A DNA stretch of 62,627 nt, filler included, from Basidiobolus ranarum (taxonomy: Eukaryota): assembly GCA_040143965.1 (NCBI GenBank). It is 15 parts of 15 records of this genome, joined end to end, with 100 filler letters (N's around TTAATTAATTAA, not from the genome) between each part and the next. Parts side by side here need not be neighbours in the genome. Positions count along the whole stretch, not along the records: positions 46,040 to 50,114 come from JASJQH010009005.1; 14 more parts are not named here. One strand, 5' to 3'. A model generated the notes under the pieces. The model was not told the DNA's origin. It saw only the letters and a list, made by a program, of their open reading frames with translations, and searched no databases. Within the stretch, counting starts at the first letter, position 1, and each line of letters starts with the position of its first letter. The position numbers and the translations under genes were made by a program. This document shows positions 2,699 through 58,714 of the stretch, in pieces.

Positions 2699-2965
2699 TG
2701 TTGGATAATAAATCTTTATTCAACATCTTAGTTGACTTTATTTTTGATAGATATATCAGAAACAGAAAGCAACGTATCTATAGCCCCTATATTCTAAATA
2801 GGAATATCTCTATATCAATATAACAAGTATGTCTTATTACCCCCACCTATCTATTATATCTTATTACACAAACTCCTGAATATCTCAAACAATTGATTTA
2901 CTTTTCTACTATATAAGTCACCATTTACTCTCAAGAATAAAGTTACCAAAACACACTATCATAAG
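2699..2965 (+). repeat. Interspersed repeat family D (~265 bp, probable solo LTR)
   Basis: Starts TGTTGGATAAT and ends CTATCATAAG. Related copies at 4196-4305(-), 31271-31535(+) and 46040-46293(-). Confidence 0.7.
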
Positions 2966-3439
2966 ATTCAGATGCAAATTGGGGAAGAGATTTGAAGACA
3001 GGAGATCTGCAACAGGATATTTATTTCTTTGCTGTAATAGAGCTATTTCTTGGATTTCAACAAAACACCCTACCATAGCACTTTCAACAACAGAAGCTGA
3101 ATATATGGCTGCCTGTGAAGCAACAAATGAAGCAATATGGTTAAGAAAACTCTTAAAAGATTTGGGTTATTCTCAAAATTCACCAACTACAATATTTCAA
3201 GATATTCAAAGTGGTATCAAATTAGTTAAAAATCCCATGTTTCATAATAGAAGCAAACATATAGATATTAAGCATCACTTCATTAGAGAGACTATAGGAA
3301 ATAAGCTTAATGAGTTAACTTATTGTTTGACAGAAGATATGATTGCTGATATATTAACCAAACCATTAGCTGGATAGAAATTTAAGAAACTTAGACTTTT
3401 GTTAGGATTAGTTTATATAACTATGTTGGTGAGGGAGAG
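2966..3439 (+). mobile_element. Ty1/Copia pol 3' end (RT tail/RNase H) and polypurine tract, family A
   Basis: [24 protein letters not shown] and MIADILTKPL motifs; PPT GAGGGAGAG at 3431-3439. Confidence 0.92.
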
Positions 3440-4095: not shown

Positions 4096-4195
4096 NNNNN
4101 NNNNNNNNNNNNNNNNNNNNNNNNNNNNNNNNNNNNNNNTTAATTAATTAANNNNNNNNNNNNNNNNNNNNNNNNNNNNNNNNNNNNNNNNNNNN
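4096..4195. other. Artificial contig spacer (N44-TTAATTAATTAA-N44), first of 14
   Basis: Identical 100-bp spacers start at 4096, 8289, 12481, 16670, 20857, 25040, 29223, 33405, 37585, 41763, 45940, 50115, 54288 and 58459. The core gives stops in all six frames. Confidence 0.98.
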
Positions 4196-4305
4196 GATAT
4201 TCCTATTTAGAATATAGGGGCTATAGATATGTTGCTTTCTGTTTCTGATATATGTATCATAACTAAAGTTAACTATGATGTTGAATAAAGATTAATTATC
4301 CAACA
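4196..4305 (-). repeat. Repeat family D fragment
   Basis: Reverse complement of 2699-2810; ends ...ATCCAACA. Confidence 0.75.
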
Positions 4306-4794
4306 GGTTGCCTGGCTTGTTTTCCATATATATAACCCTCACAAATTTCCATTTTGGTTGGGGAGGTTAATTTGAATTCCAGAAATTAGGCAATATTTGA
4401 TTATTTTGCTCAAATAATCAAATCAAATATGGCCAAATCTCTTATGCCATAATTAAGTAGTTTCTTGATTGCAATAACCTATCTCTACATATAAACCTCT
4501 TGGATTATATGTAAGCTTGTACAAGTTTTGATCCTTTTCTCCCAAAGCTAAATAATTCCCATTGTGATCAGTGATGGTGCATCCTGACTTTTATTAATGC
4601 ATATCATGCAAATTTGCCAGGAACATTTCAGTGTACGGCAAAATTAACAACCGGTAAAGACAAAGGGCAGAGATGCAAATATAGGGCAAAAGAACGTAAA
4701 CTCTGCGGACATCATCTGCGTCATCTCCATGAAACTTTTTTAGAAGATAAAGAAACACTTTCGGAAAGATTGAACACAAGAGATCTTCAACAGT

Positions 4795-7350: not shown

Positions 7351-8288
7351 ATGAGCTACAACTCTGCGAAAGCTCCAAACCCCCGACGGAAGTATTATAT
7401 TATCGGAGCTGTGGTTTTTCTAATACTAGCTATTATAGCAATAGTTTTAGGAGTGGTGTTGACTCGAAAGGACTCTGATGGTGTAATGCCAACAATTTGT
7501 ATCACTGGTTTGAACGAAACTATTTCTTTAGTCCCCAACGCTACTTCAACCACTTTATCCGAGTTAGAGCCCTCTCGCAAAGGTGGAATTAGCAACTTGG
7601 TTTCGGCCAATGCTAATACAACAGGGCTCTGTTACTCAGTTTTAAACAACCTCTACGACATAATTCCTGACTTCTCTGGGACAGGATATAAAGCGGGTTT
7701 GGCGGACATTCCTGTAGACATTCCGGTTGTTCACACCATCTCGCCTAGCTCCGATGGTAGTGATGACACGAAACGAATTCAAGATGCAATCAACACAGTT
7801 GCGTCAAAGACGACTGACAAGAATGGTTATCGGGGTGCACTTTTACTCACTTCGGGGGTGTACCGTTTATCCGATTCTGTAAGTATCTCTAAAAGTGGAG
7901 TTGTTTTACGTGGTGATCAAAACGGAAATACCACTTTGATTGCTACTTCTCCGCGTACGTATACATTGATAAAGGTTACTGGTCCTAATGGAGGTATAAG
8001 CGGATCGTCTAAATACAATATTGTTCAGCCTTATGTTCCTTTGGGCGCATTTCAGTTGACTGTAAAATCCGGTGATTCCCGCAATTTTAAGGTTGGCGAT
8101 GACATCTTGATTGCTCGCAAGGGAAACGAAGATTGGATTAAAGAAATTAATATGGCCGATCTCTCCAGCAGAGATCCAGCAGGGCGCCATTCAAAAAATT
8201 GGGTTCCCTTAGAGTCGACTTTTACCCGAAAAGTGACTGCGGTAGACTATCGTACGGGTATGGTTGCTTTCGATGTGCCTTTGACAAA
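7351..8288 (+). CDS. Signal-anchored pectin-lyase-fold (Pectate_lyase_3-like beta-helix) protein, 3' truncated
   Basis: N-terminal TM helix (IIGAVVFLILAIIAIVLGVVL), then IPDFSGTGY, DDTKRIQDAIN, GALLLTSGVYRL and SGVVLRG motifs. No intron in the visible part. Confidence 0.75.
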
Positions 8289-8388
8289 NNNNNNNNNNNN
8301 NNNNNNNNNNNNNNNNNNNNNNNNNNNNNNNNTTAATTAATTAANNNNNNNNNNNNNNNNNNNNNNNNNNNNNNNNNNNNNNNNNNNN

Positions 8389-9453
8389 GGCGCGTCTGAC
8401 GACATCAGCCAGTTCGTAGATGGTCAACATCGGGTTTCCAGTGTCACCATTCTTTCTGTTATTTCCGTTGATAAAGAAAGTAGCCTTAACGTTCACTTCG
8501 TCTAGATAATCCAGCAATCCTGAAGTCAGCACACTTGGCCCATCATCGTAAGTGACCGCAAAAGTTCCAGGTGTAGTACAACTAGTAATCACCTCGGCCT
8601 TTATTTTATTATCGCAAATGCCGAAGTCTTTTTGACAGCCTGTAGAGCAGTGATCCGAGGTGTAGCCACAGTAACCACCTTGACCGCAACATAAGCCAGG
8701 TGCACAAGAGCCGTATTTTGAGCCACACTGTTCATCGAGGTATTTCAGCCCAATTGGAGTTGAAGTGGCAGTAGCAGTATCAGTAGTAGTGGCAGTATTA
8801 GAAGTAAAAGTAGAAGTAGGATTGATAGTGCTTGAGCTGGTAACTGAATCTGTGGAGGAGATGCTTGTAGTCGTCTCTTGTCCATTATTACAGGTACCGA
8901 AGAGTTTCTGGCAACCTCCTGTACAATGATCAGAAGAGTATCCACACCAACCCCATTCACTACAACATAATCCTGGTGCACAGGTACCATCGTTAGAGCC
9001 GCACTGCTCATTGAGTTGTTTCAATGGTGTTGAGGTTGGTGTATTTGTGGTGGTTGTTGTGCTACCAGTATTGCAAGTACCGAACTGTTCCTGGCAGCCT
9101 CCTGTGCAGTGGTCGGATGAATAACCACACCAGCCCCATTCACTACAGCACAAGCCTGGTGCACAAGAGCCAAATCCGGAACCGCATTGCTCATTGAGCT
9201 GCTTCAAAGGGGTTGAAGTCGCGGTGATATTTGTGGTGGCTATCTTGGAACCTTCATCACAGCTGCCAAAATTCTCTTGGCAACCTGTAGAGCAGTAATC
9301 GGAAGTAGAGCCACAGTAGCCCAATTGATTACAGCATAAACCTTGTGCACAAGTACCATACTCGGAGCCACACCGGTCGGAGATGTACTGCGGGGCGCCT
9401 TCGATGGATGTTGCAGCCAGTGCAATACCGAGCAGAGAAAGAAAGAATTTCAT
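8389..9453 (-). CDS. Secreted chitin deacetylase (CE4/NodB) with four CBM18 hevein domains, 3' truncated
   Basis: Signal peptide MKFFLSLLGIALAA (ATG 9453), four CG..C..GLCC..GxCG..C..GCQ..FGxC modules, Thr-rich linkers, then TYDDGP and ATFFING. Confidence 0.92.
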
Positions 9454-11531
9454 GGTTAAGAGCCAGATACCCAAGAAATCTGAGGAAGTAATAAGAAATT
9501 GGCCTGACTTATAAAGTGAATGGTGTCAGGCGATGAACAACGAATACTCCGATTCAAATAACTAGTTACTTACCAAAATCAATGAATTGTGGAAGATAAT
9601 CGAAGTGGGAAGTATTACAAATTCATCCTTCGTCGTACTTGACGGCATCCCCGTGGCTATAGCCTACTAGAAGCTTATTGGAAGTGATAGGTGCTTTGAG
9701 TTGCGTAACTGTAACACTGCATTAGCCAACGATAATGCGAGTCGCTCAAATACGCGTGTCACAAGATCCGTACTACCCGCCAAAAGAGTAACTCCACCTT
9801 AAACCGGAGTGGAGCGGATTACCTATCTAGCTCAGTCTTCCCCTACAAGTGAGGAAATGGAACTAGAAGCATTCTATATTCACTGGTATCCACTTCATTA
9901 CTTTGATTGATCACTGGGGGTTACCCGGTTTAACAAGTGCAGTTTCACCTTAGTCGAGCTAAATACATCGAGCACTAATATATATATGAATATATAGTAA
10001 GAAAACTGGCTGCTACTAATGTAGATTCGTCTAGATCGTGTTAGTATTTATAGTACTCATAGATCTAAATGGGGTAAGGTCTGACAAAAAGCTGTCTTGG
10101 TTCGCTTTTTCTGATCGATTAAGCCAAATTGGTTATGGATATAGTAGTGGTGTGGAGTTAATGTATTTTCACGGAGTGAACACTGAGAAATCACCGCTTA
10201 TACGCCATACTTCTTATTTTCAAGCCCTTCACCGAAAAGGAAATACACGAGAAAATATAGTACCACAGTCGGCAACCAAAATGCAGTCTATGAGTTAGAG
10301 ATGGCAAGATACATGCAGGGAAGCTCCCATTGAATTAGGTATTAACGGCACCCTAGGTAATAGGATCGGTACCAACTAATATGTTGAAGCTGTTCAGACA
10401 AATCTCATAACGTATCTGAATAAATGGTCAACTGTAACGGATGTTGTACCTCGGGATGAAGTAACTATCCAAGCAAATCAATACGGTGAGCATATAGGTT
10501 CATTATCAGGGTTTGAGCAAGCACCAGCAGGATCAACGATGCTCTAGCTAAAATCTTAAATTGCTTATACATATAGATTAATCATTTTTTACAATGGTTC
10601 TACGATCTATAAATAGATAGCGATCACCAGTCCAAGGTAAATTAAACAAGAGATATCCAGCCATTGCTCAAAAAAAGTAGTTGCGCCTGGTAAGACCCGA
10701 AATTGTTCAAACATGTTATTATAAGCTAATGGGAGAGGGAGAGAGAGTGATAGGGATTCTGAGCCATTCGCTGATACAGGTGGTTACTTCAACATCGTGA
10801 TTAGAAAAATCTTGAATTCCGCGGTAAATATAGTCCGGGGTGATACATCTGCAAGCTCTTACAAACAAATGCAAACCTTCACGGTTTGTCGTCCATTGTT
10901 GCATGATATTCCTCATTCAAACTTGTTGGTAAATACATCTATCACGTAATGACCGTAGCATTATTCGCTACTACGCATTTGTGGCCATACTCCCAATGCA
11001 GGCATCCGCCACGTTGATATTCACCATAACACTGTTGACTCTGTATGTTGTAAAACACTGCTATTCTGTGCTTCAGAAACTGTCAACCAATGCATAGTTT
11101 TATCTTCTCGGTAATTGATTATGTCACCAGCAAGTACGATTTGCGAGATCCAAAATCATCACAATATCTATGATCTGATTTTACAAGGTGTAGAGTGCCC
11201 AATCGAATTGTACAGATAGTTTCCATATGGCAAGCTTAATTGATTAACATGGACAGAAACCCAGGAAAAAAGTCATCAGTTTCACTTACACATTTTCAGC
11301 AGTATTGCTGGAGGCCAATTGGCTATATCTATATATCTATCTGCAGCCAGTATCAATTAGCAAGAATTGATAACCTTTCTACTAGCGATGTATGTGTCAG
11401 TTAACTGCTTTTCTTTGCGTACCTCAACAAGAAACAGGATTTATCCGAACAAAAAGAGTTTACCAACAGTAGCTATGTGTGTATTTGTGTGACGGTGAGA
11501 TATGATTTAGAAACAGTCATAGGAGTAAAAA

Positions 11532-17730: not shown

Positions 17731-20700
17731 ATGAGTTTGAGACAACGAAATCCAGCTGCACCAGATTCAGAGAGCCTCCCTGCTCGTGCTACAAATGGCA
17801 AGGTCAAAAATGACCAAGCGGAGCCGGAGGTCACATTTGGCAAAACATCTTCGGGAAAAAGTATGTAAAACTTTAGTACTTCAACAGTACTTCTTTCGTG
17901 GACCGAAACTTAGCACGTTTTACTCACGTTAGTAGCCCTTACCATACCTTCTCATTCAACTCACAATATTCCTCCCTCTTTACGAATATAGTATTCAAAG
18001 TCCCAGCAACGTCGGACATGCTAACTACTTTGTTTGACCCTAACGTTGAAAAGTCAGCGTTTGATTACTTAACCTTGGGAGTATTATGCTTCCAAGCGTT
18101 ACTGTTTTTTATACTTCCCAGTGGCTTTCGGAAATATTTTTTCCTGGTAGTTTTCTTACTCTGGCGTACTGCTTACAACCTTGGACTAGGTCTGTTATTG
18201 AAGTATCAAAGTGATAAGCGAGGCTTAGTATCTCTAGCTCGCAAGAAGGGAATATTTGACAAGAAAAAAGGTGGAAAATACTACGCATGGATCAAAAAAG
18301 ACTTGACAGCTAAAATGGGCAAAGACTATGATTTTGAGGTATTTTGATTTCTGTTACTCATCACATAGTATTAGCATTCACTAATTTTGTCGGTCTGTTT
18401 GTTTATATTTTAAGTCTGCCCCTATAGAGTTCAATACTTGGCTTCTTTTCCGTCAAGTGGTAGACCTCATTCTTGTTAACGACTTCACATCATATATATG
18501 CTTTGCCCTCTCTTTTGTGCAAACCCCGGAAAGTTATGGCTTCATATTCAATTCATTAAGATGGATTGGTGGAGTATTTTTGGTCATTTTCAACCTTTGG
18601 GTAAAGATGGATGCTCACCGAGTTGTGAAAGATTTTGCTTGGTGTATGTATAGACAATTTGCTTATAGCTTTTGGCATGGTTTGACTAAGTATATATTCA
18701 TTATTTCTATAGACTGGGGAGACTTCTTCTTCCTTATTGAACAATCACTAACTTTCGATGGTGTATTTGAAATGGCCCCTCATCCAATGTACTCCGTTGG
18801 CTATATCGGGTTTTACGGTGCTTCTTTGATGACTGCTAGCTATACTGTTTTATACATCAGTTTGTTAGCACACGCTGCACAATTTGCTTTCCTCTATTTC
18901 GTAGAAAATCCTCGTAAGTCTTGATTTTGCTGGTTTGTTTGAGATATAGAACTGGCATTTACATTTATATCTTTCATATTTAGATATTGACAAAATTTAC
19001 GGTACCCCACGTCTACCAAAGCGCTATAATCGAGTATCGAGCGAGTTAAAGACTAATGAGTCTAGTAACAATGATCTTAGTGAGTCAGCCGGTATTAACT
19101 TGGATCAATATGCCGCTAGAGATATCCATAATTCTTACTTCCGACGTGATCTGATTGTTTTCAAAAATTTCGATCTCTTCCGCTCTACTGACCTGTTCAT
19201 AGTGTTAATTATCCTATATGGTGGAGTTTTTGTACCGCTGTTGGCTAATGGCGGTGAACATATTTTCACTTGGTTTTTAGTAGGCCAATGCCTTGCCTGG
19301 CGTCTGATACACAGCTATGTGTTAGGCGCGGTTCTTTATTTTCAAAGTAATTCTAAATTCTGGACTAAGCATTTCATTAAATATGGCGGAACTAACAAAG
19401 ATGCTTTTGAAAGTTGGAAAAGGTATATTTTATTATGAATGTTGCGCAATGCATTTTGATTTTTAACTCTCTTTTCATAGCATATATAACCTTTCCCTAA
19501 GTATGACCTATGTGTCTTTCCTTGCTGTCGCTATCAAGATGTATAATTTACCTGCTGATTGGACGTATGGAGCCGTGTTGCTTCGGCATACATTTGGTTT
19601 ACTTTTGGTAGCTCTCCATATCTGGACATCCGTCTCGGTATTTGAAGTATTAGGTGACTTTGGCTGGTTCTATGGTGACTTCTTCATTGATGAATACCCG
19701 GCAACTCTTTGTTACACCGGTATATACAGATTTTTGAATAACCCAGAGAAATTAATTGGTCATGCTGCCTTCTGGGGAATCACACTTATGAGTAATAGTA
19801 TGGTTATATATGGGTTAGCTCTTTGCTCGCAAGTTTCCAACTTCCTATTCCTCCATTATGTCGAAGGACCCCATATGCGTAAACTCTACGGGAACACAAT
19901 CCGCAAAGAAGCTGGCCTTACAAGATCAGTTAAAACTGCTAAATTTATTCCCAGGCCGATTAGGGAAAAGCTAGAGGAAAATCCGGAGATTCAGATGATC
20001 GTAATGAACACTAGAGCTGCAGAGAAGATCGTTGAGAGGGTTACCGAATCTTTCGAAAAAGTAGCAGAAAAGGTAGTGGAAGAAACAGCAGGAATTGTTG
20101 ATAAGGCTAAGCCTAAGCTTCAAGAAATAATATCCGAGACTAGAAGCCTAATAACTCAATCGCAGGCCAAAATTGCTGAAGTCAGACTAACATCCGAGCA
20201 AGCTCTTCAGCGCAAGGATTCCCTGCAATATTCTCTTGAAATTCAATCTTCGTCCATATCCAAAGAACTTAATTTTTCTCTCGGAGAGCCTATCAAGCTT
20301 ACTTGGACTGCACCTGTTGATCATAGTAAAGAAGATTGGATCGGCATTTATAAAGTTGGTGCGAATGCTTCAGACAATATTACATCCGTATCATCCAAGG
20401 GACGTTATTTATACGTTTCCAAAAACGAGGATGAAGAGGAGAGTATGGTAGAAGAAGATATCACACCTGTCGGTTCTGGGGATACAGTTGCTTCTGGAGA
20501 GATAATCTTTACCGTTGATAAATTGCCATGGGAAATTGGAACCTATGAGTTTAGATATCATCACGATGGTAAACACTCCGTGTTAGCTATCACAAAGCCA
20601 TTCAAGATTATTGTAGATGTCTTGAATCAAAATCCTACTCAGCAAGAGATTCAGAGTACGCTTTTCCCAACTATTCAGCGTTGTTTGGCCCTCGATCAAA

Positions 20701-20856
20701 TCCATTTCCCCGAACGCCCAGAAGATGATTTTGACGGATTAAAGGAGAATGATGCAAAAAAAATTGTATATGCAATCAAGCTTATGTACGAAGTAGAGTT
20801 CACTTGGCAGGTGATCGAGATGGACGCCAATGTAAATAATCTTGCAAATAGAATAT
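17731..20856 (+). CDS. CHO2: Phosphatidylethanolamine N-methyltransferase, 6 exons, 3' truncated
   Basis: Exons 17731-17860, 17992-18338, 18415-18643, 18713-18913, 18984-19422 and 19481-20856 join in frame via GT-AG introns. Motifs [39 protein letters not shown] and [18 protein letters not shown]. Confidence 0.95.
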
Positions 20857-23682: not shown

Positions 23683-25039
23683 ATGTCTACCAGTGCTATT
23701 GCAAGCATTTTTGCATCCATGGAGAAGTTTGATGGTGATGACTTTCATCATTGGAAGTTCAAGATGCAGATGGTGCTAGAAGATAAGTACCTTTGGGGAT
23801 TTGTTACAGGAGAAGAAATAGAGCCACAGGGATCACCAGAAGCTCTCCTTGCTTTTCACAGGAAAAATAGGAAAGCACTCTCTACACTCTGTCTACATCT
23901 CAGAAACTGATGATTGAGGCACATACAGTCATCCAAAAACATCCAAAATGCTTGGAAAACACTTGAGGGACTATATAAGACTAAAAGTTGGGCTAATAGG
24001 CAATATCTCAGGTTAGATGAATTCTGATGATTAAATGCATAATCACATAAATTTGGTAACAACTATGGCAGATCAACTCTCATCCATTGGAGCACCTCTA
24101 AATGAAGATGACCTAGCCATGACACTACTTGGGAGCCTGCCGGACAAGTTTGGGAACCTCATAATTGGCCTAGTATCAAGATCAGACTCATTAACAATGG
24201 AATATGTTGATACTAGGCTTTTGAATGAGGAATTGAGGAGATCCAATCCTCAGCAGAATAATGCAGAACAGGCATTTTTTGCAGCTGTAAAACATCCAAC
24301 AGGCTTCAATAAAGGTGACCCTAATAGGAATTCAACCATCTGCCAGTATTGCAAGAAACCAGGCCATTTAATCAAAGATTGTGGAAAAAGAATTTTTGCC
24401 AAAAAGCTAAAATTGGAACAAGCAAATCAAGTAAGCACTGATAAGGATTATCTATTTGTGTCTTACCTATCAGTAACCACTAAAAAAGACTCAGAAATGT
24501 GGTACATTGATTTAGGAGCTTCCCAGCATATGTCAAACAAAAAAGATTGGTTTTCCAGCTTAAGACCCATCCAAACAAGGAAAGTCTACTTAGGTGATGA
24601 CTATGCACTAGCTGCAGTTGGTAAGAGCACAGTTGTGTTCAATTTACACCAAAATCCAGCTACACTATCTGCAAAATTGGATGATGTACTCTATGTACCA
24701 AATATAGTCAAGAATCTACTCTCAGTAAGCCAAGTAACAACTACAGGACTAAATTTTGTCTTCAACAAGGCTGGATGCACTATCACATATTGGAATAATA
24801 GTGGGAAAAGGTACTTTAGGACCTTTATTGAGAAACAAAACAAGATATACTTTGGTGTTCTTTCTCAAATCAAATTTAAAGTCTTAGCTACATTCCAGCA
24901 CTACAAAGCAATGGTAGAGAAAGAATCAGCACAGAAAATAAGGATACTAAGGAGTGATAATGGTGGAGAATACTGCTCTAAAGACTTTACTAGTTTTTGT
25001 TCTAAACATGGAATTAAGCAACAAACTACTGTACTTTAT
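23683..25039 (+). mobile_element. Copia family B gag-protease-integrase (degenerate, internal deletion)
   Basis: EKFDGDDFHHWKFKMQMVL, CQYCKKPGHLIKDC zinc knuckle, WYIDLGASQHMS protease, VLYVPNIVKNLLS and LRSDNGGEY. Confidence 0.92.
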
Positions 25040-31000: not shown

Positions 31001-31270
31001 CTCTTTGGTGCACTATACTTTCTGGCACTGGTCTTTTCAATGTAGGAATCATAGACAATAAACCATAGTAGCCACTACTACAGTGAGTAATGTAGCAAGA
31101 GTTAAGTTCAATACTGGAAAGTCAATGATTAGAAACAGATTCATTATTCCTGTGAGAAATTCACAATTGCTGTATTACTATGTAGTCAAAGATTGATTTT
31201 GCCATTTAATGCCAAAGTTGGAGTGTGAACACTGTTGATAGTTAAAAAAGACAAGGACTGCCAGGAGATC

Positions 31271-31535
31271 TATTGGATAATTAATTGTTATTCCAGATCT
31301 TAGTTAACTTTAATTGTGACACATATGTCAGAAACAGAGGGCAACATATGTGTAGCCTCTATATTCTAAATAGGAATGTCTCTATATCTATATGACAAGT
31401 ATGTCTTGTTATCCCCACTGATCTATTATATCTTATTACATAAACTCCTGAATATCTCAAACAACTGATTTTCTTCTCTACTATTTAGGTCACCATATTC
31501 TCTTAAGAATAAAGTATCTAAAACACTATCATAAG
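31271..31535 (+). repeat. Repeat family D copy
   Basis: Colinear with 2699-2965. Confidence 0.75.
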
Positions 31536-33504: not shown

Positions 33505-33990
33505 CTGTTAGAGTAAACTCCATTGATTTGACAAAATCTACAGCAAGATAGTGCATTGTGCCCACAAAAACCTCCAAGTTTACTGATGGCAGGAGTGTCA
33601 CCAATACATACAATGCTATTAGCTTTAATAAAATATTCACCCATCTGAACCCCATTAGATAACCATTCAAAATTCACAATTAAAGGCTCCAAGAAGCTAT
33701 CTATAAGCACTGGTGATTTAGGTCCAGATATGATGGATAGGATCAAAATATTACAACTCTTATACCATTCAGAAGGAGGAAGATTCAAGTTGATTAAATT
33801 TATTGGCCAGCAAGCCTTTCCAACGCTCCATTTGTTCAGCAAGAAACCATCCGGAGCCAATGCAAATGCATGATCATACGTGTTCTCAAAGAAACCTTGA
33901 CTTGTCAGATTCTGGTGGTTATATCCATCAAGTATATTGGTAAAACCATGAGCTTTATGGTGAGTACTTTGGTACTAGCTAGCACAATAT
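33505..33990 (-). mobile_element. CACTA/EnSpm Tnp2-family transposase fragment
   Basis: DGF..WPINLINLNLPP..ISGPKSP..FLEPL..GDTPAISKLGGFCGHNALSCCRFC motif series. Confidence 0.85.
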
Positions 33991-37753: not shown

Positions 37754-38742
37754 GGAGCTTGGTTGGATATTGCATATTCTGTGGGATTTAGATGTCAGTA
37801 TCTTAAAAATTATGGATTGATCAAATCATAGCAGTTATGTGAATTTTCAGAAATTTAAAGATACTGCAGCTCTGTGCTTAAAATACACATATTCTGGATC
37901 AAACTTTGATCTGATGGGGTATTCCAATGCAATTTGGGGCAGAGATATTGACAACAGAAGATCTATAACAGGATGCTTATTTCTTTGCTGTAATGGAGCA
38001 ATTTCTTGGAATTCAAAGAAACAACCTACTGTAGCACTTTCAACAATAGAAGCAGAATACATGGCTGCCAAGGAAGCAGCAAAAGAAGCAATATGGCTAA
38101 GAACCCTCTTAGCAGACTTAGGCTATTCTCAAAATTCTTTAACTATAACATTTCAAGATAACAGATGTCATATCAAATTAGCCAGATATCCCGTGTTTCA
38201 TAATAGAAGCAAACATATAGTTATTAGACCTCATTTCATTAGAGAGACTATAGAAAATAAGTTTATTGACTTAACTTATTGTTCTACAGAAGACATGATT
38301 ACTGATATACTAACCAAGCCATTAGCTAGACAGAAATTTGAGAAATTTAGACCTTCCTTTGGATTAGCTGATATGACTATTTAGTTGAGGGAGAGTGTTG
38401 AAGTTAGCATTACCTAAACATCTATATAGTCATATATAGCTTAAAACTTAGTTATTGTATACTTCACCAAGACATTATCCATTATTTTCAATTGGAATTT
38501 ACTTAGAATATTTTACCAACTTAGAAGTTCTTAAATATATAGAATTTTCAAGCATGTGCTAGAAGCCCCAAACTTTGCACATTTGTTTCTGTAGCCTTTC
38601 TTATAGCATTCTACACTTTAGTTTGCTTACATCTTGACAAAACTACAAACATTAACTTTCTACTCAATAAATCAATAAGTGAAATCCATCAATTTCCCTA
38701 ATTCTCTAAACCACTTCCAACTGGCTTCCAAATACTTTAGCA
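37754..38742 (+). mobile_element. Copia family A RNase H, PPT and 3' LTR (38396-38742)
   Basis: ORF 37839-38384 is RNase H; GAGGGAGAG PPT; TG...CA LTR of 347 bp. An inverted LTR A end lies at 37685-37753. Confidence 0.92.
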
Positions 38743-46039: not shown

Positions 46040-46293
46040 TTTTAGTTAGTTTATTCTTAAGAGTATATGGTGACTTATATAGTAGAAAAGTAAATCAATT
46101 GTTTGAGTTATTCAGGAGTTTTGTGTAATAAGATATAATAGATAAGTGGGAATAATAAGACATACTTGTTATATAGATATAGAGATATTCCTATTTAGAA
46201 TATAGGGGCTATAGACACGTTGCTTTCTGTTTCTGATATATGTATCATAACTAAAGTTAACTATGATGTTGAATAAAAATAAATTTTCCAACA
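46040..46293 (-). repeat. Repeat family D copy
   Basis: Reverse complement of 2699-2950. Confidence 0.78.
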
Positions 46294-47858
46294 GTTCTGC
46301 AGTGCACATTGCTTTTATTTATATTAATTGGAATACCTCAGTTACAAATACATGGCATTTTATACAACTTTTTAAATTTGTAGCACCTTTGTGCTGCACA
46401 GGTTACATAGCCCAAAAGTTTATTTTAATGACTATTTTGTTGTTTTGTATATAAATAAACAGGTATGGAGCTTAGTGCTAGTGAGCTGTCAATATTTGTA
46501 AAACATGAGTAGAAAGCTTTTATCAACACTTTCAATATTTCTAGATTTGTAGTATAATTATGATCTATCCAATATTTACTTTCTTCTTTATTTAATTTTG
46601 TAAACCTCACAAAGTTCTTACAAATATTACTAATTCATAATGTTAATCAACTTTCCTCATTACTCTCAATAGTATATAAAGGATATTCTCAATAAGTAAT
46701 TTATGAATAATCAAGCTAAAAAGTAGCCAGTTTACTTATGGTAAAATTAAAATACTTAAAAGCTTTCAGAGTATGACAGAAAACATCTGCACTTTGATTT
46801 CCCAGAGACTTGCAAATTTACAAGAATTAAAAAAATATTCAATATCTAAGATATTTCTTTAAATTCATAAAAATTATGAAAGCTAGAATAGGCGGTGTTA
46901 TAATGTTGGAAACATTGTCTCTTCCTCAGAGGTCTCAAAGGTCAGAGATCTGACCATTGCAAAATCTGGGCAAGCCCAATTCTTCACACATACTAGTGAC
47001 TTAAGTATATTGTGAGAAGGGTGTACATGGGGGATTGCATCCCCCAAACCCCTTGCTTTCTTTTTATACTGGGAGGACTGTGTCCCCCAGACCCCCTCTT
47101 TTCATCCTTACCCTCCCTTACCCGTACCAGAACATCTATACCTTAACCCTTGCTCTCTCCCACTCCACTTAATAGTGTCGTAGACTCTACTAACTTAACT
47201 TTTCCACTTTGCAACATTCATACCAATACTCCAGAACTTCACACTTAGATCAAGAAGCTACAAAAGTAGTTATAGCTTCTTTGTTTTGTTTGAAACAAAG
47301 ATTTCACCTGCTGGTGACTGTCTCCCCCCTAACTTCTGGATTCTTCCCATCTCATATTAGAGTAGTTTTATTCTGGGCAAGATTTCTACTCCAAATAAAT
47401 GACTGCAGATATCCACTGATTAAGAAGTGGCTAGCTACACCATCTTCATATGCATTATCATGCTGGAAATTGATCCAAGATGATCCTCTTGTTTCTGAGT
47501 TACCTTTATAGCTGCATGAAATAAAACATCCTAAAATTGTTGCTATAGACTTCCAGCTAGACCTTTGGAATCAATACCGTGCCTCTGAAACACCGTTCTT
47601 GATTCCCAATGTTTCAGGTTTTTGTCCTATTGTCCATCTGGTGTGTACTGAGTGCCTTCCTTTCTGCTTACCACCTCTGCCCCTTAGCACTATATTTACA
47701 TCCTCTGAACTTGATTACATTGTTCATCAAGTTAAGTATGGATATAATCCAGTATTGTCACAATATCTCAAAAAATAATGTCTTGATTGTAACTTAATTT
47801 AGGTTAGTATTTAAGCTAAATAAAGTCCACACCGTATGGTGCTTTTCATCCCCCCTGG

Positions 47859-48040
47859 AGAACACCAAGCCTAGCTGTCTATCAAACCTACTCTCTACTG
47901 TTATATAGCAAACCATTTCTATTCTCAAGACTCATATTAGTTAAATCTTTTCTACTTATATCTCCTGCTTAAACAGTTCAAAGATACTGCACTTAAATGT
48001 TTCTGGGTTCAGTCAAGTTCTTGACTTTTATCTGCTTTTC
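47859..48040 (+). repeat. ~180-bp diverged direct repeat (second copy 49931-50114), unidentified TE remnant
   Basis: AGAACACCAAGCCTAGCTG...CCTGCTTAAACAGTTC...GACTTTTATC shared by both copies, which flank the methyltransferase ORF. Confidence 0.8.
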
Positions 48041-48289
48041 TCTTGGTGATATTGGTATATTTTAACTTGACCACATATTGGTAGCTTCATATGCTAAATT
48101 GGCTTATTTATTTAATGGTTGTTAAATCATTTATTAAAAAAATATTACACCCTCTGATGTTTTTCATCCCCCTACCCTGGTTTAATGTGTTTTAAATAAC
48201 AAGATCGAATTGCCCAAGTGGCGATCTTTCTGCTCTCATGACTCAATTTAGCACCATGTGCCCAGTGCGTACAATATTTGAACAAGAAC

Positions 48290-49807
48290 CTACCTCTCTT
48301 CATGAATGATACAATGAGAGCGTACGAGAGCATAACGACCTTTAGGTTCCTCCCACCAACAGGAAAGACTAAATCCAGCATTTAAAAGTTCGGTGCGCAC
48401 CTCCTCTTTACAAAACTTATACGAAATACCTACTTGTAGCTCTTCTTTTTCCTTAAAGTGGACAGCACTGTTGGGGTTGGAGAGAGTAACTACATGCGGA
48501 ACCTTCGCCTGGAGTAAGTTCTCTACGCGCCGACATTGACGATTCCAGGTTGTAATATGGTTGAAATTGTCCAAATCGAAGTTTGCACCCAGTTCATAAT
48601 TAAGAACTGTCAATCCATTCTTGAAAAATGCGGCTAAGGAGCCCTTGCCATCGCCGTAGGCTGAGATCATGGCCTCTTCATCTTTAACCAAGTCCAGTCC
48701 TAGAAGTAGAGCATCGCCGCGCTGCATTTGAGAATGGATATTGCAAAATAAATGGTGTCGTTCTTGTGGCAGTTGATTCTCAATGGTACTGCCCAACATT
48801 GTCACTAAAGCGGGTCGGGCTTCAATATCGAAAGGGATCGGATCAGTAAAGTCACCGGCCATGCTCTTTATGACAAGGTTTTTATACTGGGCCCTTAGTG
48901 CGCATTTGCTCTTCTCTAGAGCGTCAGCGCTAATATCCACTGCGATATAATGCGTAAGATCACCTCCCACGTGGAAGATGTCAAGCAGCTTCTTAGCCTT
49001 TTCCGAAGAGCCTGAGCCCAGCTCAATGAGGGTGCGAGCAGCTACGCACGCTGCGATATCATCCGCGTGACGATCGATGATTGCACATTCAGTCTTAGTT
49101 AGGTAATATCCAGGGGCTTTAGTGACTTGTTCAAAGATTTGGCTGCCAAGGCAATCATAGATGTATTTTATTTGTACTCTCTTTGGAATCTCACAAAGCC
49201 CCATGAGCAAATCTTTCTGGGACTTTGATTGGACTTTGGCTGAGATAAACCAGCGGTATTGAGTATCCAAAGTGGCATCACTGGAGCTAATAGTTGGCAT
49301 CCATGAGGCTGGAGGGTTTTCTGGTAGTGGGGTGATAAGATTATTGAGGGTCCATGCACGACCGGCCCAACCACTTCTTGCTAATTGATTGACTGGATCA
49401 GACCAAGTGCTGCACCAGGGGACTAGTAACTCTCGTCTCCTATCTAATACTGAATCCTGTTCCAAAGTGACTAAGATATCTGAATGAATGTGATCGCACC
49501 ACATCTGGCTACCGTGGGCAGAGTAACCTCTTAGAGTTTCCAGTAACCTGCAAGTGGCCTCGTCATTCAGATAGGGCAATACGCCCTCGATAATCCAGAG
49601 TGTTGGTTTCTCCTTGGTAAAGTTGGTGGCACACAAAGGAGTGATCCAGTCTCCAGCAAGGTCGGCGGGGACAAGAGTACGGGAGAAATTGACTTTGGTT
49701 TCACTACTTGCTAGACGCTCCATCCTGGCCTGCAATCGCTCGGGAACGTCAATCTCGAAGACAATCAGATCCGAAGGAATTGTCATTCGAAAGGTTCGTA
49801 CATCCAG
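48290..49807 (-). CDS. Fused double methyltransferase: LCM/TIGR00027-type SAM MTase plus EgtD-like (Methyltransf_33) domain; 5' end missing
   Basis: N domain: LDVRTFRM..VFEID.P..ADL..DW..PTLWIIEGVLPYL. C domain (from ~49213): KYIYD.LGSQIFEQVT..YYLTKTE, ELGSGSSEK, LGSTIEN, LLLGLDLVKD..AY and ISYKF. About 500 open codons. Confidence 0.88.
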   Translation of the reverse strand: MDVRTFRMTIPSDLIVFEIDVPERLQARMERLASSETKVNFSRTLVPADLAGDWITPLCATNFTKEKPTLWIIEGVLPYLNDEATCRLLETLRGYSAHGSQMWCDHIHSDILVTLEQDSVLDRRRELLVPWCSTWSDPVNQLARSGWAGRAWTLNNLITPLPENPPASWMPTISSSDATLDTQYRWFISAKVQSKSQKDLLMGLCEIPKRVQIKYIYDCLGSQIFEQVTKAPGYYLTKTECAIIDRHADDIAACVAARTLIELGSGSSEKAKKLLDIFHVGGDLTHYIAVDISADALEKSKCALRAQYKNLVIKSMAGDFTDPIPFDIEARPALVTMLGSTIENQLPQERHHLFCNIHSQMQRGDALLLGLDLVKDEEAMISAYGDGKGSLAAFFKNGLTVLNYELGANFDLDNFNHITTWNRQCRRVENLLQAKVPHVVTLSNPNSAVHFKEKEELQVGISYKFCKEEVRTELLNAGFSLSCWWEEPKGRYALVRSHCIIHEER

Positions 49808-51296
49808 CTGAACCTTTTGGTTTAGTGTGTGTCTCAACAAATACAGGATCTCAACACTTCTCAGTGTTCCTCAACAAATTCAATATTCCTCTCTCATTTC
49901 TATCTAAGCCTAGTATTCACTAGCACCTACAGAACACCAAGCCTAGCTGCCTAGCAAACCTACTCTCTACCGTAACATAGCAACCCACTGCTATTCCCAA
50001 GAAATATATTAGTTAGATCTGCTCTGCTTATATATCCTGCTTAAACAGTTCTAAGATTCTGCACTTAACTGTTTCTTTGGTTCAGTAAAGTTCAAGACTT
50101 TTTATCCACTTTTCNNNNNNNNNNNNNNNNNNNNNNNNNNNNNNNNNNNNNNNNNNNNTTAATTAATTAANNNNNNNNNNNNNNNNNNNNNNNNNNNNNN
50201 NNNNNNNNNNNNNNGAGATGGACGATATTACGCGGCGCCTTGGTGAGCGAGCGTTCTCATAGACAGACCCCTAAACTTGATGATGCTCTCGTATCAGCAC
50301 TAAAGCTGCTTCTGCTTCAGGGGCAACTTGGGTAAGTCGTGATGCTTTACTACTCCGTGGGATATTAAGCAGACTTTTGATATCTTTGTTGCAGCATTGA
50401 AGCATTTTTGGGGATGATGATTGGCCTTCTCTTTGGCGTTAGTGTAGTGTTTCCCAATACCTTGCTGTCTCTCACTATGATCTCTGATCGGCAACCTGAC
50501 AGGATCGTAGCCGAGGCTAAGTACTCTATGAAAGTTTAGATCACCATTTGTTTGTGATGTATTGTGATGATATGCATCGACCATTTGTTATATTTTGATG
50601 GTGAATTGGTCAAGTATCACCTTCAATTTCTTCACTACATACAACATAGTCGATGCTTTCGCACTTGGGTTTGCGAGTAATATTCGTCAACTAAGCTAGC
50701 TCGAGTGTTAAGATTTCAAAATATGTTGACAAAGAAACGTCAAACTGACGTATTTCCAAGGCACGAAAGCAACCCTGTATATTATTAATATCTAATTGTC
50801 TGAGCGTCGAACTACCCACTGCGGAAATCAGGAAGAATATTCGATTTATTGACAAGTTTCCAGTATCAGGCCAGCCACTGTTGTTGTGCTTTGGATGAAT
50901 TCATGTAATGAGCTTCTTGTGTAAAGCGAGTAGCTCCACAATTCAGATGAAATTTGGAAGCGTTGTCTTTGAGGCAGACTGACCACAAGTTGATCAGAGC
51001 GGCTCTTGGTGTCACATGGGACAAAGTGTTGATTATTGAAGCAACCCGAGTAAACAGTCAAGAATTTATCTTTTTGAACTAATTATCAGTTTTTTTTCGA
51101 GTTACGAGTTTTCCGAACAAGTACAAACATCGTGCAAACTTTTTTCTGATAAAATTTGACAGATTGAAAAATGGTTAGTCCAATCAGACAAGATGAAATC
51201 AATATTCTAGACAACATCAAATCAGTCAAGTATATATACTAATTCCGTATTGATAAGTCCATCTCTTCGCTGAATAGGCCTGTTTCTTACCATAAA

Positions 51297-52494: not shown

Positions 52495-54184
52495 TTATAG
52501 AATAGCTGCAAGAGGATGAGTTTCTTGTAGTTGAGTACGAAGAATACGTCTAAGGATTTTGCCATGGCTGTTTCTGGGAATGTGGTCCACAAATACTACA
52601 CCAGCGCGAAGTTTCTTATAATCAACAACTTTGTCATTTACATGGTCAGCAATTTGCCCAGCCAAATCCGGATGAGGATCGTGCATGTCTTTTAATACAA
52701 CGCAACCACAAGGTAATTCGGTCTGCTCCTTTTCAGATGGATAACCAATAACCGCCGCTTCGGAGACTGCAGGATGAAGAAGCAGATGCTCCTCAAGCTC
52801 AGCTGGAGCTACCTGATTGTTATCATACTTAATGATCTCCTTGATACGATCAACAATATAAAGTGCATGCCTGTCATCCATGTATCCAATATCTCCAGTA
52901 TGATAGAACCCATCGACATCAAAAGCATCATGGGTAGCATCAGGGTTGTTGAAGTACCCCTTCATTATACTTGGCCCACGGGCACAAATTTCTCCTCTCT
53001 CTCCAACTCCTAGAGGCTTACCATCCTCATCAATAATCTTGATTTCGAAGTTGGGCATAACACATCCAACTGAATCTGCAGGAATATAGTCGGTAACTCT
53101 AATACAAATTCCTCCGCAGCATTCGGTCATGCCATAGAGAGACCCAACAGTCATATCAAATTTGTCTTGAACGATATTACAAACATCGCGAGACATCGGC
53201 CCGCCAAAGAAATGGCCCTGCTTCAAGCAGCTGAGGTCGTATTTATCAGTCAATGGGCTCTTAGACAACAAGTTAATAGCATTAGGAGGCACTGCCAGAC
53301 TTCCGATACGATATTTATCGACGAGACTAAGCAAAAAGTCGAAGGTATACTTCTGAGGAAGAATGATGAAAGTCTCACCGCCTAACAGGGCCAAGATAAT
53401 CATGAACACTCCCGATATGTAGCACATTGGAGAAGTATTTAATACGGTGCCCTTGGTTAAAATATCACCATAATCCTGGACGAGAACACCATATTGAGCC
53501 AAGTGTGCTACCAAATTTCTGTGAGTGAGCTGTACACCCTTAGGCTTTCCAGTAGTTCCAGATGAATAAATCAAAATGGCTGGGCATTCGGCATATTCCT
53601 CTGCATCTAATGTCCAATTCATTTCTGCAGACTTAGATGCAAGGGCAGTCCATAGGTAGTTTGGTGAATCCACATTGTCCAAAACATAAATAGACTTTGC
53701 AACAGTGCCCGCGATTATGATGGCTTTTTTAACTGTTTCTACAAGGCTTTCAGTGGTGACAATGATTTCTGCTTTAGAATTTGAAAGTTGGTGAGCCATT
53801 TCTTCGGCATTATATTCAGAGTTCACGGTCATGCATGCACCACCTAAAAGGAATGAAAAAGGGTTGTTAATATACATTGTATTATTACATTCAATACTTC
53901 CATTGGAACATACCCGCAGCAATTGCACCAAGAGCGATCGAACCATAGTCAATGTGATTGTCCGAAACCAATGCCATAATACTACCCTTGCCAAAGTCGT
54001 GTTTTTCTCTTAAACCTCTAGCGATGCGCTTGGAACCATCCTTTACTTGGCGCAAACTTCTAGTCTCCTGGGTGAAATGATCCAAGAGGATACCCTTTGA
54101 ATCGTCATAAGTTGCGGAAGTCACAAAGGTGTAGAAATCTATGCTTGGAATTTCGGCACGAGGGTATGGAGAAGTGAAAATCAT
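52495..54184 (-). CDS. 4-coumarate-CoA ligase-like AMP-binding enzyme, 2 exons
   Basis: Exons 54184-53914 and 53843-52495. Motifs YSSGTTGKPKGV, YGMTE, TGDIG, IVDRIKEIIKY, VAPAELE and GKILRR; TATA-like run at ~54233-54243. Confidence 0.92.
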
Positions 54185-57981: not shown

Positions 57982-58714
57982 TTAGAGTAGATGGAGAGCA
58001 TGATATTAGTCTTGTATTGAGCTGGCACAATACTGCTTGATCTGGTGCATGTCTATTATTTTTCTAAGAATTTCAATTATCATGGTAAAATTCCCTACAT
58101 TCTGTATAGTAAAATTTCTGTTTGCATTTATTATCCTAATGGTTTCAATTATGTGAAATTGCATGGAAACATCTCAAAGTGGAATGCATTAGGCTTGATC
58201 ACAATATAGAAAATTAAATTTGACATTTTAACCAATAATATCAAAAGATCCCTAATTTTGATTGAAGTTAATGAAGTCTAACATCATAGACATATATGGT
58301 AGGTATGTATCATGTCAAAACAGATTCTTCTTGATTCACAACCTATATTGGTACAGGAAACCACCACTTCCAGAATTTTGTGCACACAGTCAAGTGAAGT
58401 TGTGGGTGTCACAAAGCAGTGTGTGCCTAATGATTTTACAGATGCCCATGTATTTACTNNNNNNNNNNNNNNNNNNNNNNNNNNNNNNNNNNNNNNNNNN
58501 NNTTAATTAATTAANNNNNNNNNNNNNNNNNNNNNNNNNNNNNNNNNNNNNNNNNNNNCATATTGTTCCTTATAGTGTCCAATCAAGTGTTATAGGACCC
58601 AGCCATGGTAATTGACAGATTGCGCCAGAAGATGTACTAGCAAGCTGGATCAAGTGGCATGATCTGACCTGGTCTGATGGACAAGTCTAGTGGGAGTAGT
58701 CAGCCAAGATGTGC

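Follow-up and report, generated by a model that had tools for sequence, protein, structure and literature searches.

A 4075-bp draft contig of Basidiobolus ranarum (assembly GCA_040143965.1) carries a single long open reading frame (ORF) in which the remnant of an OPCMT-like carboxyl methyltransferase, a protein of the LCM fold, is joined in frame to a complete EgtD-like (Methyltransf_33) domain. The frame is read here, at a probability of roughly 0.55, as a genuine fusion, in a fungus-like eukaryote, of a bacterial two-gene methyltransferase module whose chemistry would be the N-methylation and then the carboxyl methylation of an amino acid, with this copy incomplete. The window, that is, the whole stretch of DNA that was analysed (positions 1-62627), consists of 15 draft contigs arranged in descending order of length from 4095 to 4069 bp and joined by 14 linkers of 100 bases each, made of N with TTAATTAATTAA at the centre (4096-4195, 8289-8388 ... 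58459-58558); adjacency across a linker therefore has no biological meaning. The fused frame and its parts are as follows, in window positions:

46040-50114, no strand: draft contig holding the fused frame, 4075 bp, delimited by the linker positions
48290-49870, minus strand: open frame with the LCM/OPCMT-like remnant and the EgtD-like domain in frame; 526 codons counted between stops; its own stop codon occupies 48290-48292
49232-49807, minus strand: OPCMT-like remnant (LCM fold, TIGR00027), ORF residues 12-203, corresponding to residues 85-279 of the Streptomyces protein P0213
49220-49231, minus strand: junction of four residues, QSKS, between the last LCM-homologous and the first EgtD-like-homologous residue (by eye, from the alignment and the translated loci)
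48323-49219, minus strand: complete Methyltransf_33 (EgtD-like) domain, ORF residues 208-506

A fused frame and its two-gene counterpart in Streptomyces

Counted between stops, the frame has 526 codons; a start at the TTG of 49840 would leave 516, and one at the first ATG (49786) would leave 498. Pfam searches matched PF10017 (Methyltransf_33) to residues 208-506 over profile positions 2-300 of 304 (E 1.3e-84; 284.3 bits, threshold 23) and PF04072 (LCM) to residues 12-103 over positions 94-186 of 187 (E 4.3e-22; 79.3 bits, threshold 22.3); both matches are far beyond chance, and the frame otherwise gave only weak generic methyltransferase matches. TIGR00027 (NCBIfam) scored 106.6 bits against a cut-off of 93.55, with only positions 90-244 of 259 matched, so that the curated cut-offs of both PF04072 and TIGR00027 were passed through the C-terminal part of each profile only. 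An earlier reading of the sequence by a model, hereafter the original prediction, had described one frame of about 500 codons with an LCM-type domain followed by a full Methyltransf_33 domain, and had proposed these two Pfam profiles as its test. The frame, the membership in both families and the full PF10017 domain stand, whereas the LCM domain is not whole (94-186 of 187); the outer end proposed for the feature, 49807, is the exact start of the LCM homology. Full-length alignments of the ORF with both types of relative were rejected, as they placed LCM rows onto the Methyltransf_33 domain.

The combination of the two families appears to be confined to this protein. Among the best 120 of 712 significant proteins, both Pfam domains were found only in the window's own protein, which was also the sole significant match of the N-terminal 205 residues among 642 candidates of 283-903 residues. 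In an exhaustive scan of 1.84 billion representatives it alone matched across both halves among the best 150 of 9028 matches, in which the LCM half was matched by one protein (P0213) and the EgtD-like half by 148; a Pfam scan of the 23 proteins in that set longer than 370 residues, plus three others, found none with PF04072 and PF10017 together. Methyltransf_33 fusions among the scanned proteins were with GATase, DinB_2 plus FGE-sulfatase, GCS2 or Aminotran_5. The ESM Atlas yielded no cluster carrying both families, and no description of an LCM/OPCMT-type and EgtD-type pair or fusion was found in the open-access literature and bioRxiv. The architecture seems to be unique: in three protein searches the two domains occurred together in no protein but the window's own (among the matches listed). 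Fungal Egt1 and the bacterial EgtD fusions are likewise multidomain proteins with Methyltransf_33 that join steps of one pathway; however, in Egt1 the Methyltransf_33 domain is followed by DinB_2 and FGE-sulfatase, whereas in the fused frame the partner is a second methyltransferase dependent on S-adenosylmethionine (SAM), of the LCM fold, and is N-terminal.

In bacteria, the two halves correspond to neighbouring genes. Motifs common to the ORF and P0213 were sought in bacteria and archaea, each species being represented by a single genome; of the 50 matches to these motifs, seven encode a relative, all in Streptomyces. By tblastn both halves of the ORF were matched at each of these seven loci, in the same order and at 40-44% identity. 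The first gene (279 residues, OPCMT-like) ends with a stop at codon 280 in six of six intact copies, and the second (~325 residues, EgtD-like) begins 10-20 codons after it, in the same frame at three loci (L003-L005) and in another frame at three more (L001, L002 and L006); the pair thus consists of separate genes in Streptomyces. At L001 (S. jumonjinensis) they occupy 8001-8840 and 8872-9858. The second gene was assigned to PF10017 at all three loci scanned (L001, L002 and L005; E ~1e-97), and that of L003 is nearly identical to P0122, the best bacterial match of the C-terminal half of the ORF among the matches listed. Across the seven loci only the two methyltransferase genes are common, a LuxR-type regulator being present in three and the other neighbours differing, and no egtA/B/C/E domains were seen among the neighbours scanned at L001, L002 and L005. 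This arrangement lends strong independent weight to the proposal that the two activities belong together: at every one of these loci, the genes most closely related to the two halves in bacteria lie side by side, in the order of the fusion. At one of them (L007, positions 8001-8600; Streptomyces sp. UNOB3_S3) the LCM-type gene is broken, with a match from residue 54 and the frame lost after ~90 codons, and its EgtD-like partner is intact.

Phylogenetic analysis placed each half of the ORF with the genes of these pairs. The LCM half formed a clade with nine pair-type Streptomyces rows at a support of 100/100 (IQ-TREE, 40 rows; the P0274 fragment, rows shorter than 230 residues and the near-duplicate or broken L001, L003 and L007 were left out), and the same grouping had a support of 100 in a quick 67-row tree. 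The EgtD-like half grouped with P0123, a 216-residue fragment 55% identical to it (99/96), then with a 320-residue protein of Basidiobolus ranarum (100/99), and these three grouped with seven pair-type Streptomyces rows at 100/99 in a careful 40-row tree, from which the long-branch P0259 and L003, a duplicate of P0122, were left out and which took in the 26 best-scoring further representatives; support for the EgtD-like grouping was 80 in a quick tree of 62 rows and 92 in a FastTree of 158 rows. Because both halves group with pair-type Streptomyces, they point to one shared origin, in a Streptomyces-type module. Many Basidiobolus genes are known to derive from bacteria, actinobacteria among them (PMC7466969).

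At the junction, the last residue homologous to the first protein is followed by QSKS and then by about residue 17 of the second protein, which is the outcome that would be expected of a deletion across the intergenic spacer and one that a misassembly would rarely give. The composition of the frame is host-like: its G+C content at third codon positions (GC3) is 0.46-0.48, against 0.38-0.42 for four other genes of the window and 0.85-0.96 for the Streptomyces ORFs (a list filtered at GC3 >= 0.85), and its codon preference correlates with that of the four window genes at r = 0.86. That the frame arose by chimeric assembly or by contamination from bacteria is therefore extremely improbable: the assembly is a draft in short contigs and the architecture is a singleton, but the two coding regions meet precisely where one gene ends and near where the next begins, following the Streptomyces operon order, the GC3 and codon usage are those of the host and not of Streptomyces, the flanks of the frame are AT-rich (34-37% G+C), and the repeat at the far end of the contig is common to other contigs.

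The missing start of the carboxyl-methyltransferase half

The ORF aligns to residues 85-279 of P0213 (Streptomyces jumonjinensis, 279 residues), the closest full-length relative of the N-terminal half among the matches listed, at 41% identity and up to its last residue, and the ORF is matched by positions 87-270 of the 273 in the full family profile. A profile of family residues 1-84, run against all six frames of the window, gave a best E of 7 and no match on contig 46040-50114, and tblastn of P0213 against the window found no additional LCM piece. In a structure model of P0213 (predicted local distance difference test score, 89.2; predicted template modelling score, 0.91), helices span residues 2-19, 35-49 and 55-72, and a strand at 77-81 is followed by a loop; by this model the ORF lacks three helices, strand beta1 and the glycine loop, ~84 residues in all.

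By sequence, the solved structures nearest to the N-terminal half are ML2640 and Rv0731c, which are also the best fold matches of the P0213 model (template modelling scores of 0.75-0.78), followed by LCMT-1, PPM1 and TYW4. In ML2640c/Rv0731c, Thr20 and Tyr194 hold the carboxylate, SAM is bound by Arg28, Arg90, Ala113/Gly115, Asp135, Asp164/Leu165 and Glu189, and the N-terminal helical domain (alpha1-alpha4) forms the substrate pocket (Lin et al., PMC10193983). These residues were transferred through an alignment to the solved chain, whose index is the number of PMC10193983 minus 3. P0213 has equivalents of all ten (T7, R15, R59, A82, G84, D104, D135, L136, E160 and Y165); none of the first nine varies across the 40 other family rows, and the equivalent of Tyr194, the tenth, is Tyr in 24 of them and Phe in 16. 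The ORF keeps five, namely D31, D60, L61, E85 and Y90, equivalent to Asp135, Asp164, Leu165, Glu189 and Tyr194; it thus shares with the OPCMT-like enzymes (ML2640c, Rv0731c, MnMT4; LCM fold IPR007213) four of the eight SAM-binding residues (Asp135, Asp164, Leu165 and Glu189) and the landmark Tyr/Phe194, as Tyr90, whereas the landmark Thr20, Arg28, Arg90, the N-terminal helical domain, beta1 and the glycine loop of those enzymes are absent. Within the range of the remnant, all 11 of the family-invariant columns are kept. Path lengths to the Streptomyces relatives are 1.38-1.47 for the LCM half and 1.70-1.71 for the EgtD-like half, and by this measure the LCM half has evolved no faster than its partner. 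As assembled, however, the carboxyl-methyltransferase half cannot be expected to work: for this copy the bifunctional enzyme of the original prediction is not borne out, the LCM half being without its N-terminal helical domain, beta1 and glycine loop and having only five of the ten functional residues.

With ~84 residues absent, there are two options: a 5' truncation of the copy at this locus, or a further exon, past the contig end, that completes it. Truncation is slightly more likely than such a first exon. The features that bear on this choice lie around the upstream end of the frame and on its downstream side:

49784-49786, minus strand: first ATG (Met19), start of the 498-residue database protein, downstream of the expected position of the glycine loop
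49808-49810, minus strand: 'cag' directly before the Leu12 codon, with 'actaaac' ~14 nt upstream; putative 3' splice site (by eye, compared with four PEMT introns)
49871-49873, minus strand: in-frame TGA closing the frame upstream, with 21 codons between it and Leu12 that lack LCM homology
49931-50114, no strand: upstream copy of a 184-nt direct repeat (blastn, 85% identity over 184 nt to 47859-48040)
47859-48040, no strand: downstream copy of the direct repeat, 250 nt beyond the stop codon of the fused frame

The first homologous codon is Leu12, a CTG at 49807; upstream of it are 21 unrelated codons, the TGA and then 60 bases to the start of the repeat at 49931. Only 244 bases of contig are left upstream of the frame, 184 of them the repeat, which continues to the contig end and is at least 184 nt long. 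The far end of the contig (46040-46298) is a dispersed repeat with 86-95% identity to 2699-2951, 31266-31523 and 4196-4306 on three other contigs, so that both ends of the contig lie in repeats; on one of those three contigs a piece of this repeat lies beside a copia-like frame. The bracketing direct repeat may be a transposon end, the mark of a captured segment or an old duplication. A scan of the contig for tandem repeats and Rfam families found none. Downstream of the ORF there are three copies of an element of 38 nt with a C-run at its end (GGGGG... on the strand of the gene), at 47292-47329, 47817-47854 and 48135-48172, and further G-rich pieces resembling it lie near 47040-47110.

Three other continuations upstream of Leu12 were tried and rejected. 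A frameshift was considered because the +1 frame reads 'KGSAG' just before Leu12; there is no homology farther upstream, a stop follows, and no profile match was obtained. The upstream repeat copy was considered as the lost exon, one of its frames reading 'LGIAVG...ESRFAR', again with no profile match. The third candidate, an intron of 37 nt (GTATTT...CAG) ahead of Leu12, is too short for the range of 60-75 nt and has no coding sequence before it. The latter range is that of the four introns of a two-domain PEMT gene (Cho2-like, phospholipid methyltransferase) on another contig of the window (17877-20856, plus strand), which follow the pattern GTAWGT...CTAAY...YAG as read by eye.

A complete bifunctional gene would require an ~84-codon first exon beyond the contig end and a repeat-enlarged intron spliced at the 'cag' of 49808-49810, and would then encode a full two-domain enzyme. 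This is a serious possibility, if short of an even chance. The 'cag' coincides exactly with the boundary of homology and is preceded by 'actaaac', which resembles a branch site, an arrangement similar to that of the PEMT introns; the remnant keeps its five functional residues and every invariant column in its range, runs for 192 codons without a stop and has evolved no faster than the other half; and the contig ends inside a repeat, a usual break point of assemblies. However, the intron would have to exceed 300 nt when four of four introns read are of 60-75 nt, profile and tblastn searches of the window gave no trace of the exon, transferred genes of Basidiobolus are mostly intronless (61%; PMC7466969), and an AG beside the boundary is a weak signal.

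Alternatively, the locus may be a dead relic, a fused gene cut or captured between the repeat copies with neither half expressed. The 5' end is missing, an in-frame stop lies 21 codons upstream of the homology, direct repeats stand on both sides, and the locus is single-copy on a repeat-bounded contig, all of which would fit such a history. Against this, the frame is open over 526 codons with a complete Methyltransf_33 domain whose catalytic residues are all intact, the codon usage is host-like, and neither half contains a frameshift or stop, so that we consider a relic unlikely, though by no means negligible.

Substrate pocket and predicted pathway

The EgtD-like half aligns without gaps to the EgtD structures 4uy5, 4uy6, 4pim and 7scf (299 residues, E ~1e-61), and the numbering of the EgtD literature corresponds to the ORF residue minus 189, as checked with Asn166, Thr163, Phe159 and Phe142, which are named in PMC8593015. 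Equivalents of Tyr39, Phe47, Tyr56, Gly161, Thr163, Asn166, Tyr206 and Ser284 are kept. In EgtD, the carboxylate is bound by Tyr56, Tyr206 and Ser284 and the amino group by Asn166 (PMC8593015), and Asn166 and Gly161 matter for successive methylations (PMC9103826). Since the amino- and carboxylate-binding residues are kept, an alpha-amino acid whose carboxylate is free is the expected substrate, and it could plausibly be methylated more than once. The histidine pocket is altered, first of all at two codons:

48518-48520, minus strand: codon AAC, Asn441, at the position of EgtD Met252 (histidine pocket)
48428-48430, minus strand: codon GGT, Gly471, at the position of EgtD Glu282 (histidine pocket)

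Glu282 is named as 'important' in PMC8593015. Further changes in the pocket of the ORF are Thr213 to Leu (Leu402) and Asn217 to Phe. Over 158 rows, positions 252/282 read Met/Glu in 99 and Ile/Glu in 15. Asn/Gly is confined to 10 rows, namely the ORF, P0123, P0122 and the seven Streptomyces partners; the Basidiobolus protein has Ser/Gly. Positions 217, 252, 281 and 282 separate this clade (11 rows) from canonical EgtD (99 rows), with changes toward smaller or less polar residues. Changes at Glu282 and Met252 have reportedly turned EgtD into a tryptophan methyltransferase. The substrate of the EgtD-like half is thus probably an amino acid other than histidine, larger or more hydrophobic.

The egtD equivalog profile TIGR03438 gave the ORF 262.4 bits, below its cut-off of 290.9, the Streptomyces partner genes 293-312 bits and canonical Streptomyces EgtD 365-387 bits, and no DinB_2, FGE-sulfatase, GATase or aminotransferase domain was found in the frame with Pfam. 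The domain shares with EgtD of Mycolicibacterium smegmatis and M. tuberculosis (4uy6, 4pim, 7scf) the PF10017 fold and the residues that bind the alpha-carboxylate and alpha-amino groups, but it has Gly, Asn, Leu and Phe where EgtD has Glu282, Met252, Thr213 and Asn217, it sits behind a carboxyl-methyltransferase remnant, and it is not associated with egtB/C/E in the frame or among the Streptomyces neighbours scanned. On sequence evidence, then, the C-terminal half departs from EgtD proper in three respects, the profile cut-off, the pocket and the gene context. That it is nonetheless an ordinary histidine methyltransferase of ergothioneine biosynthesis, with an irrelevant N-terminal remnant, is very improbable. 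The best named matches, among the matches listed, are annotated as L-histidine N(alpha)-methyltransferase, and the Streptomyces partners score just over the egtD cut-off; however, the ORF itself scores under it and far from the canonical range, Glu282 and Met252 are replaced by Gly and Asn, EgtB-type domains are absent from the frame and from the neighbours scanned near the Streptomyces pair, and the clade stands apart from canonical EgtD at 100/99. The automatic name of the Streptomyces partner genes is itself probably wrong: the second genes of L001 (8872-9858) and L005 (8874-9842), and P0122, have the Asn/Gly pocket, no ergothioneine genes nearby and egtD scores barely above the naming cut-off.

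For the LCM half, the assignment to the OPCMT-like family points to esterification, as the tested members of this family are carboxyl-directed. ML2640c and Rv0731c are small-molecule carboxyl methyltransferases ("OPCMT-like") that esterify a carboxylic acid (PMC10193983), and the PF04072 enzyme Ady1 installs a methyl ester (PMC9379638). The suggestion that the LCM half forms an ester, made in the original prediction, gains support by analogy, in that ML2640c and Rv0731c are its nearest structures. The known OPCMT-like members are monomers encoded on their own, and the acids on which they were tested are steroid acids and other hydrophobic ones; the ORF, by contrast, is fused, and the literature covered reports no OPCMT-like member adjoining or fused to an EgtD-like gene. 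Ady1 (azodyrecin) and TcmP (tetracenomycin), Streptomyces enzymes that form methyl esters, share the PF04072 family with the first gene of the pair; they belong to large biosynthetic clusters and act on late intermediates, whereas the Streptomyces pair has two conserved genes only.

In the proposed history, both Streptomyces-type genes would have been transferred together, and a deletion of the stop codon of the first gene, the spacer and ~16 N-terminal codons of the second would have joined them in frame. The EgtD-like half would methylate the alpha-amino group of a free, non-histidine amino acid, probably up to the trimethyl betaine; with its carboxylate-binding residues retained, it would be expected to take the free amino acid and so to precede its partner. 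The OPCMT-like half would then methylate the carboxylate, most simply of the same molecule, to give a betaine methyl ester. Such a product is plausible and is the one proposed in the original prediction, now on a better footing, with His, Trp, Tyr, DOPA and Phe as candidate substrates; for the assembled copy it holds only with a first exon, the N-methyltransferase half being the one complete half on the contig. The two methyltransferases being the only conserved genes of the module fits a primary metabolite changed by methylation alone. That the pair and its fused descendant would by themselves convert a proteinogenic amino acid, probably an aromatic or hydrophobic one, into a permanently cationic betaine methyl ester is a tentative proposal and, in our judgement, on the doubtful side.

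The same pathway could also run on other chemistry, with the LCM-type enzyme acting on a side chain or another intermediate, or with the pair modifying a peptide. The substrates of LCM-fold enzymes are very diverse (PMC10193983) and the LCM gene is the first of the Streptomyces operon, which leaves room for this option. It is unlikely, however, because the characterised LCM-fold enzymes in the literature covered (LCMT1, TcmP, the OPCMT-like enzymes and Ady1) are all carboxyl-directed, all 40 other family rows, those of the Streptomyces clade among them, have Thr at the position of Thr20 and either Tyr (24) or Phe (16) at that of Tyr194, and the module has no further conserved biosynthetic gene.

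Several observations weigh against a fused module with successive N- and carboxyl methylation. In the LCM half, the unrelated residues Lys and Gln stand at Ala113/Gly115 and there are no equivalents of Thr20, Arg28 and Arg90; with these and the loop residues missing, the carboxyl step is not claimable for the assembled copy. No upstream exon was found within the 307 nt searched, and an intron there would be longer than 300 nt, against 60-75 nt in the four introns read. A repeat that brackets a piece of a gene fits rearrangement or capture. The fusion is carried by a single 4-kb draft contig, no second fused copy was found in the protein searches, and the Basidiobolus relative is annotated as a stand-alone protein of 320 residues. 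According to PMC10193983, bulky hydrophobic acids, and not amino acid betaines, are the substrates of those OPCMT-like enzymes that have been tested. Finally, the trees are unrooted, and a transfer from bacterium to eukaryote is suggested by both families being almost wholly bacterial among the matches listed.

Other features of the window and biological meaning

Several further features were recorded on the other contigs of the window. The next contig holds an intron-free frame of 504 codons (52495-54009, minus strand) with AMP-binding and AMP-binding_C domains, of the acyl-CoA or 4-coumarate-CoA ligase type; being on another contig, it is not genomic context of the fused frame. At 8389-9525 (minus strand), a single frame encodes four chitin-binding modules of type 1 and the beginning of a polysaccharide deacetylase; both this frame and the PEMT gene at 17877-20856 speak for an assembly of fungal origin. 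Transposon fragments lie at 24035-25039, 2880-3377, 37821-38384 and 33505-33974, and comprise copia-type gag, beta-barrel and integrase pieces, a tnp2-family transposase and pol-like pieces that no Pfam profile matched; the genome is rich in repeats.

The value of the fused frame is limited in that the copy is incomplete and its function is predicted from sequence. Both enzyme families were already known, and it is their pairing that appears to be new. Genes fused in one lineage and neighbouring in another are classic evidence of joint function, and the fusion thereby gives the Streptomyces module a function that can be tested. It would also provide one more case, here with two genes, of transfer from bacteria to early-diverging fungi.

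Natural betaine methyl esters include sticticin of lichens and hypaphorine methyl ester of plants, and biosynthetic genes for quaternary amino-acid esters were not found in the open-access literature and bioRxiv. The pair and its fused descendant point to a short pathway for such esters. If the proposed chemistry is true, these would be the first biosynthetic genes for compounds of the sticticin and hypaphorine-methyl-ester type, and a whole bacterial pathway would have moved into an early-diverging fungus and been welded there into one polypeptide.

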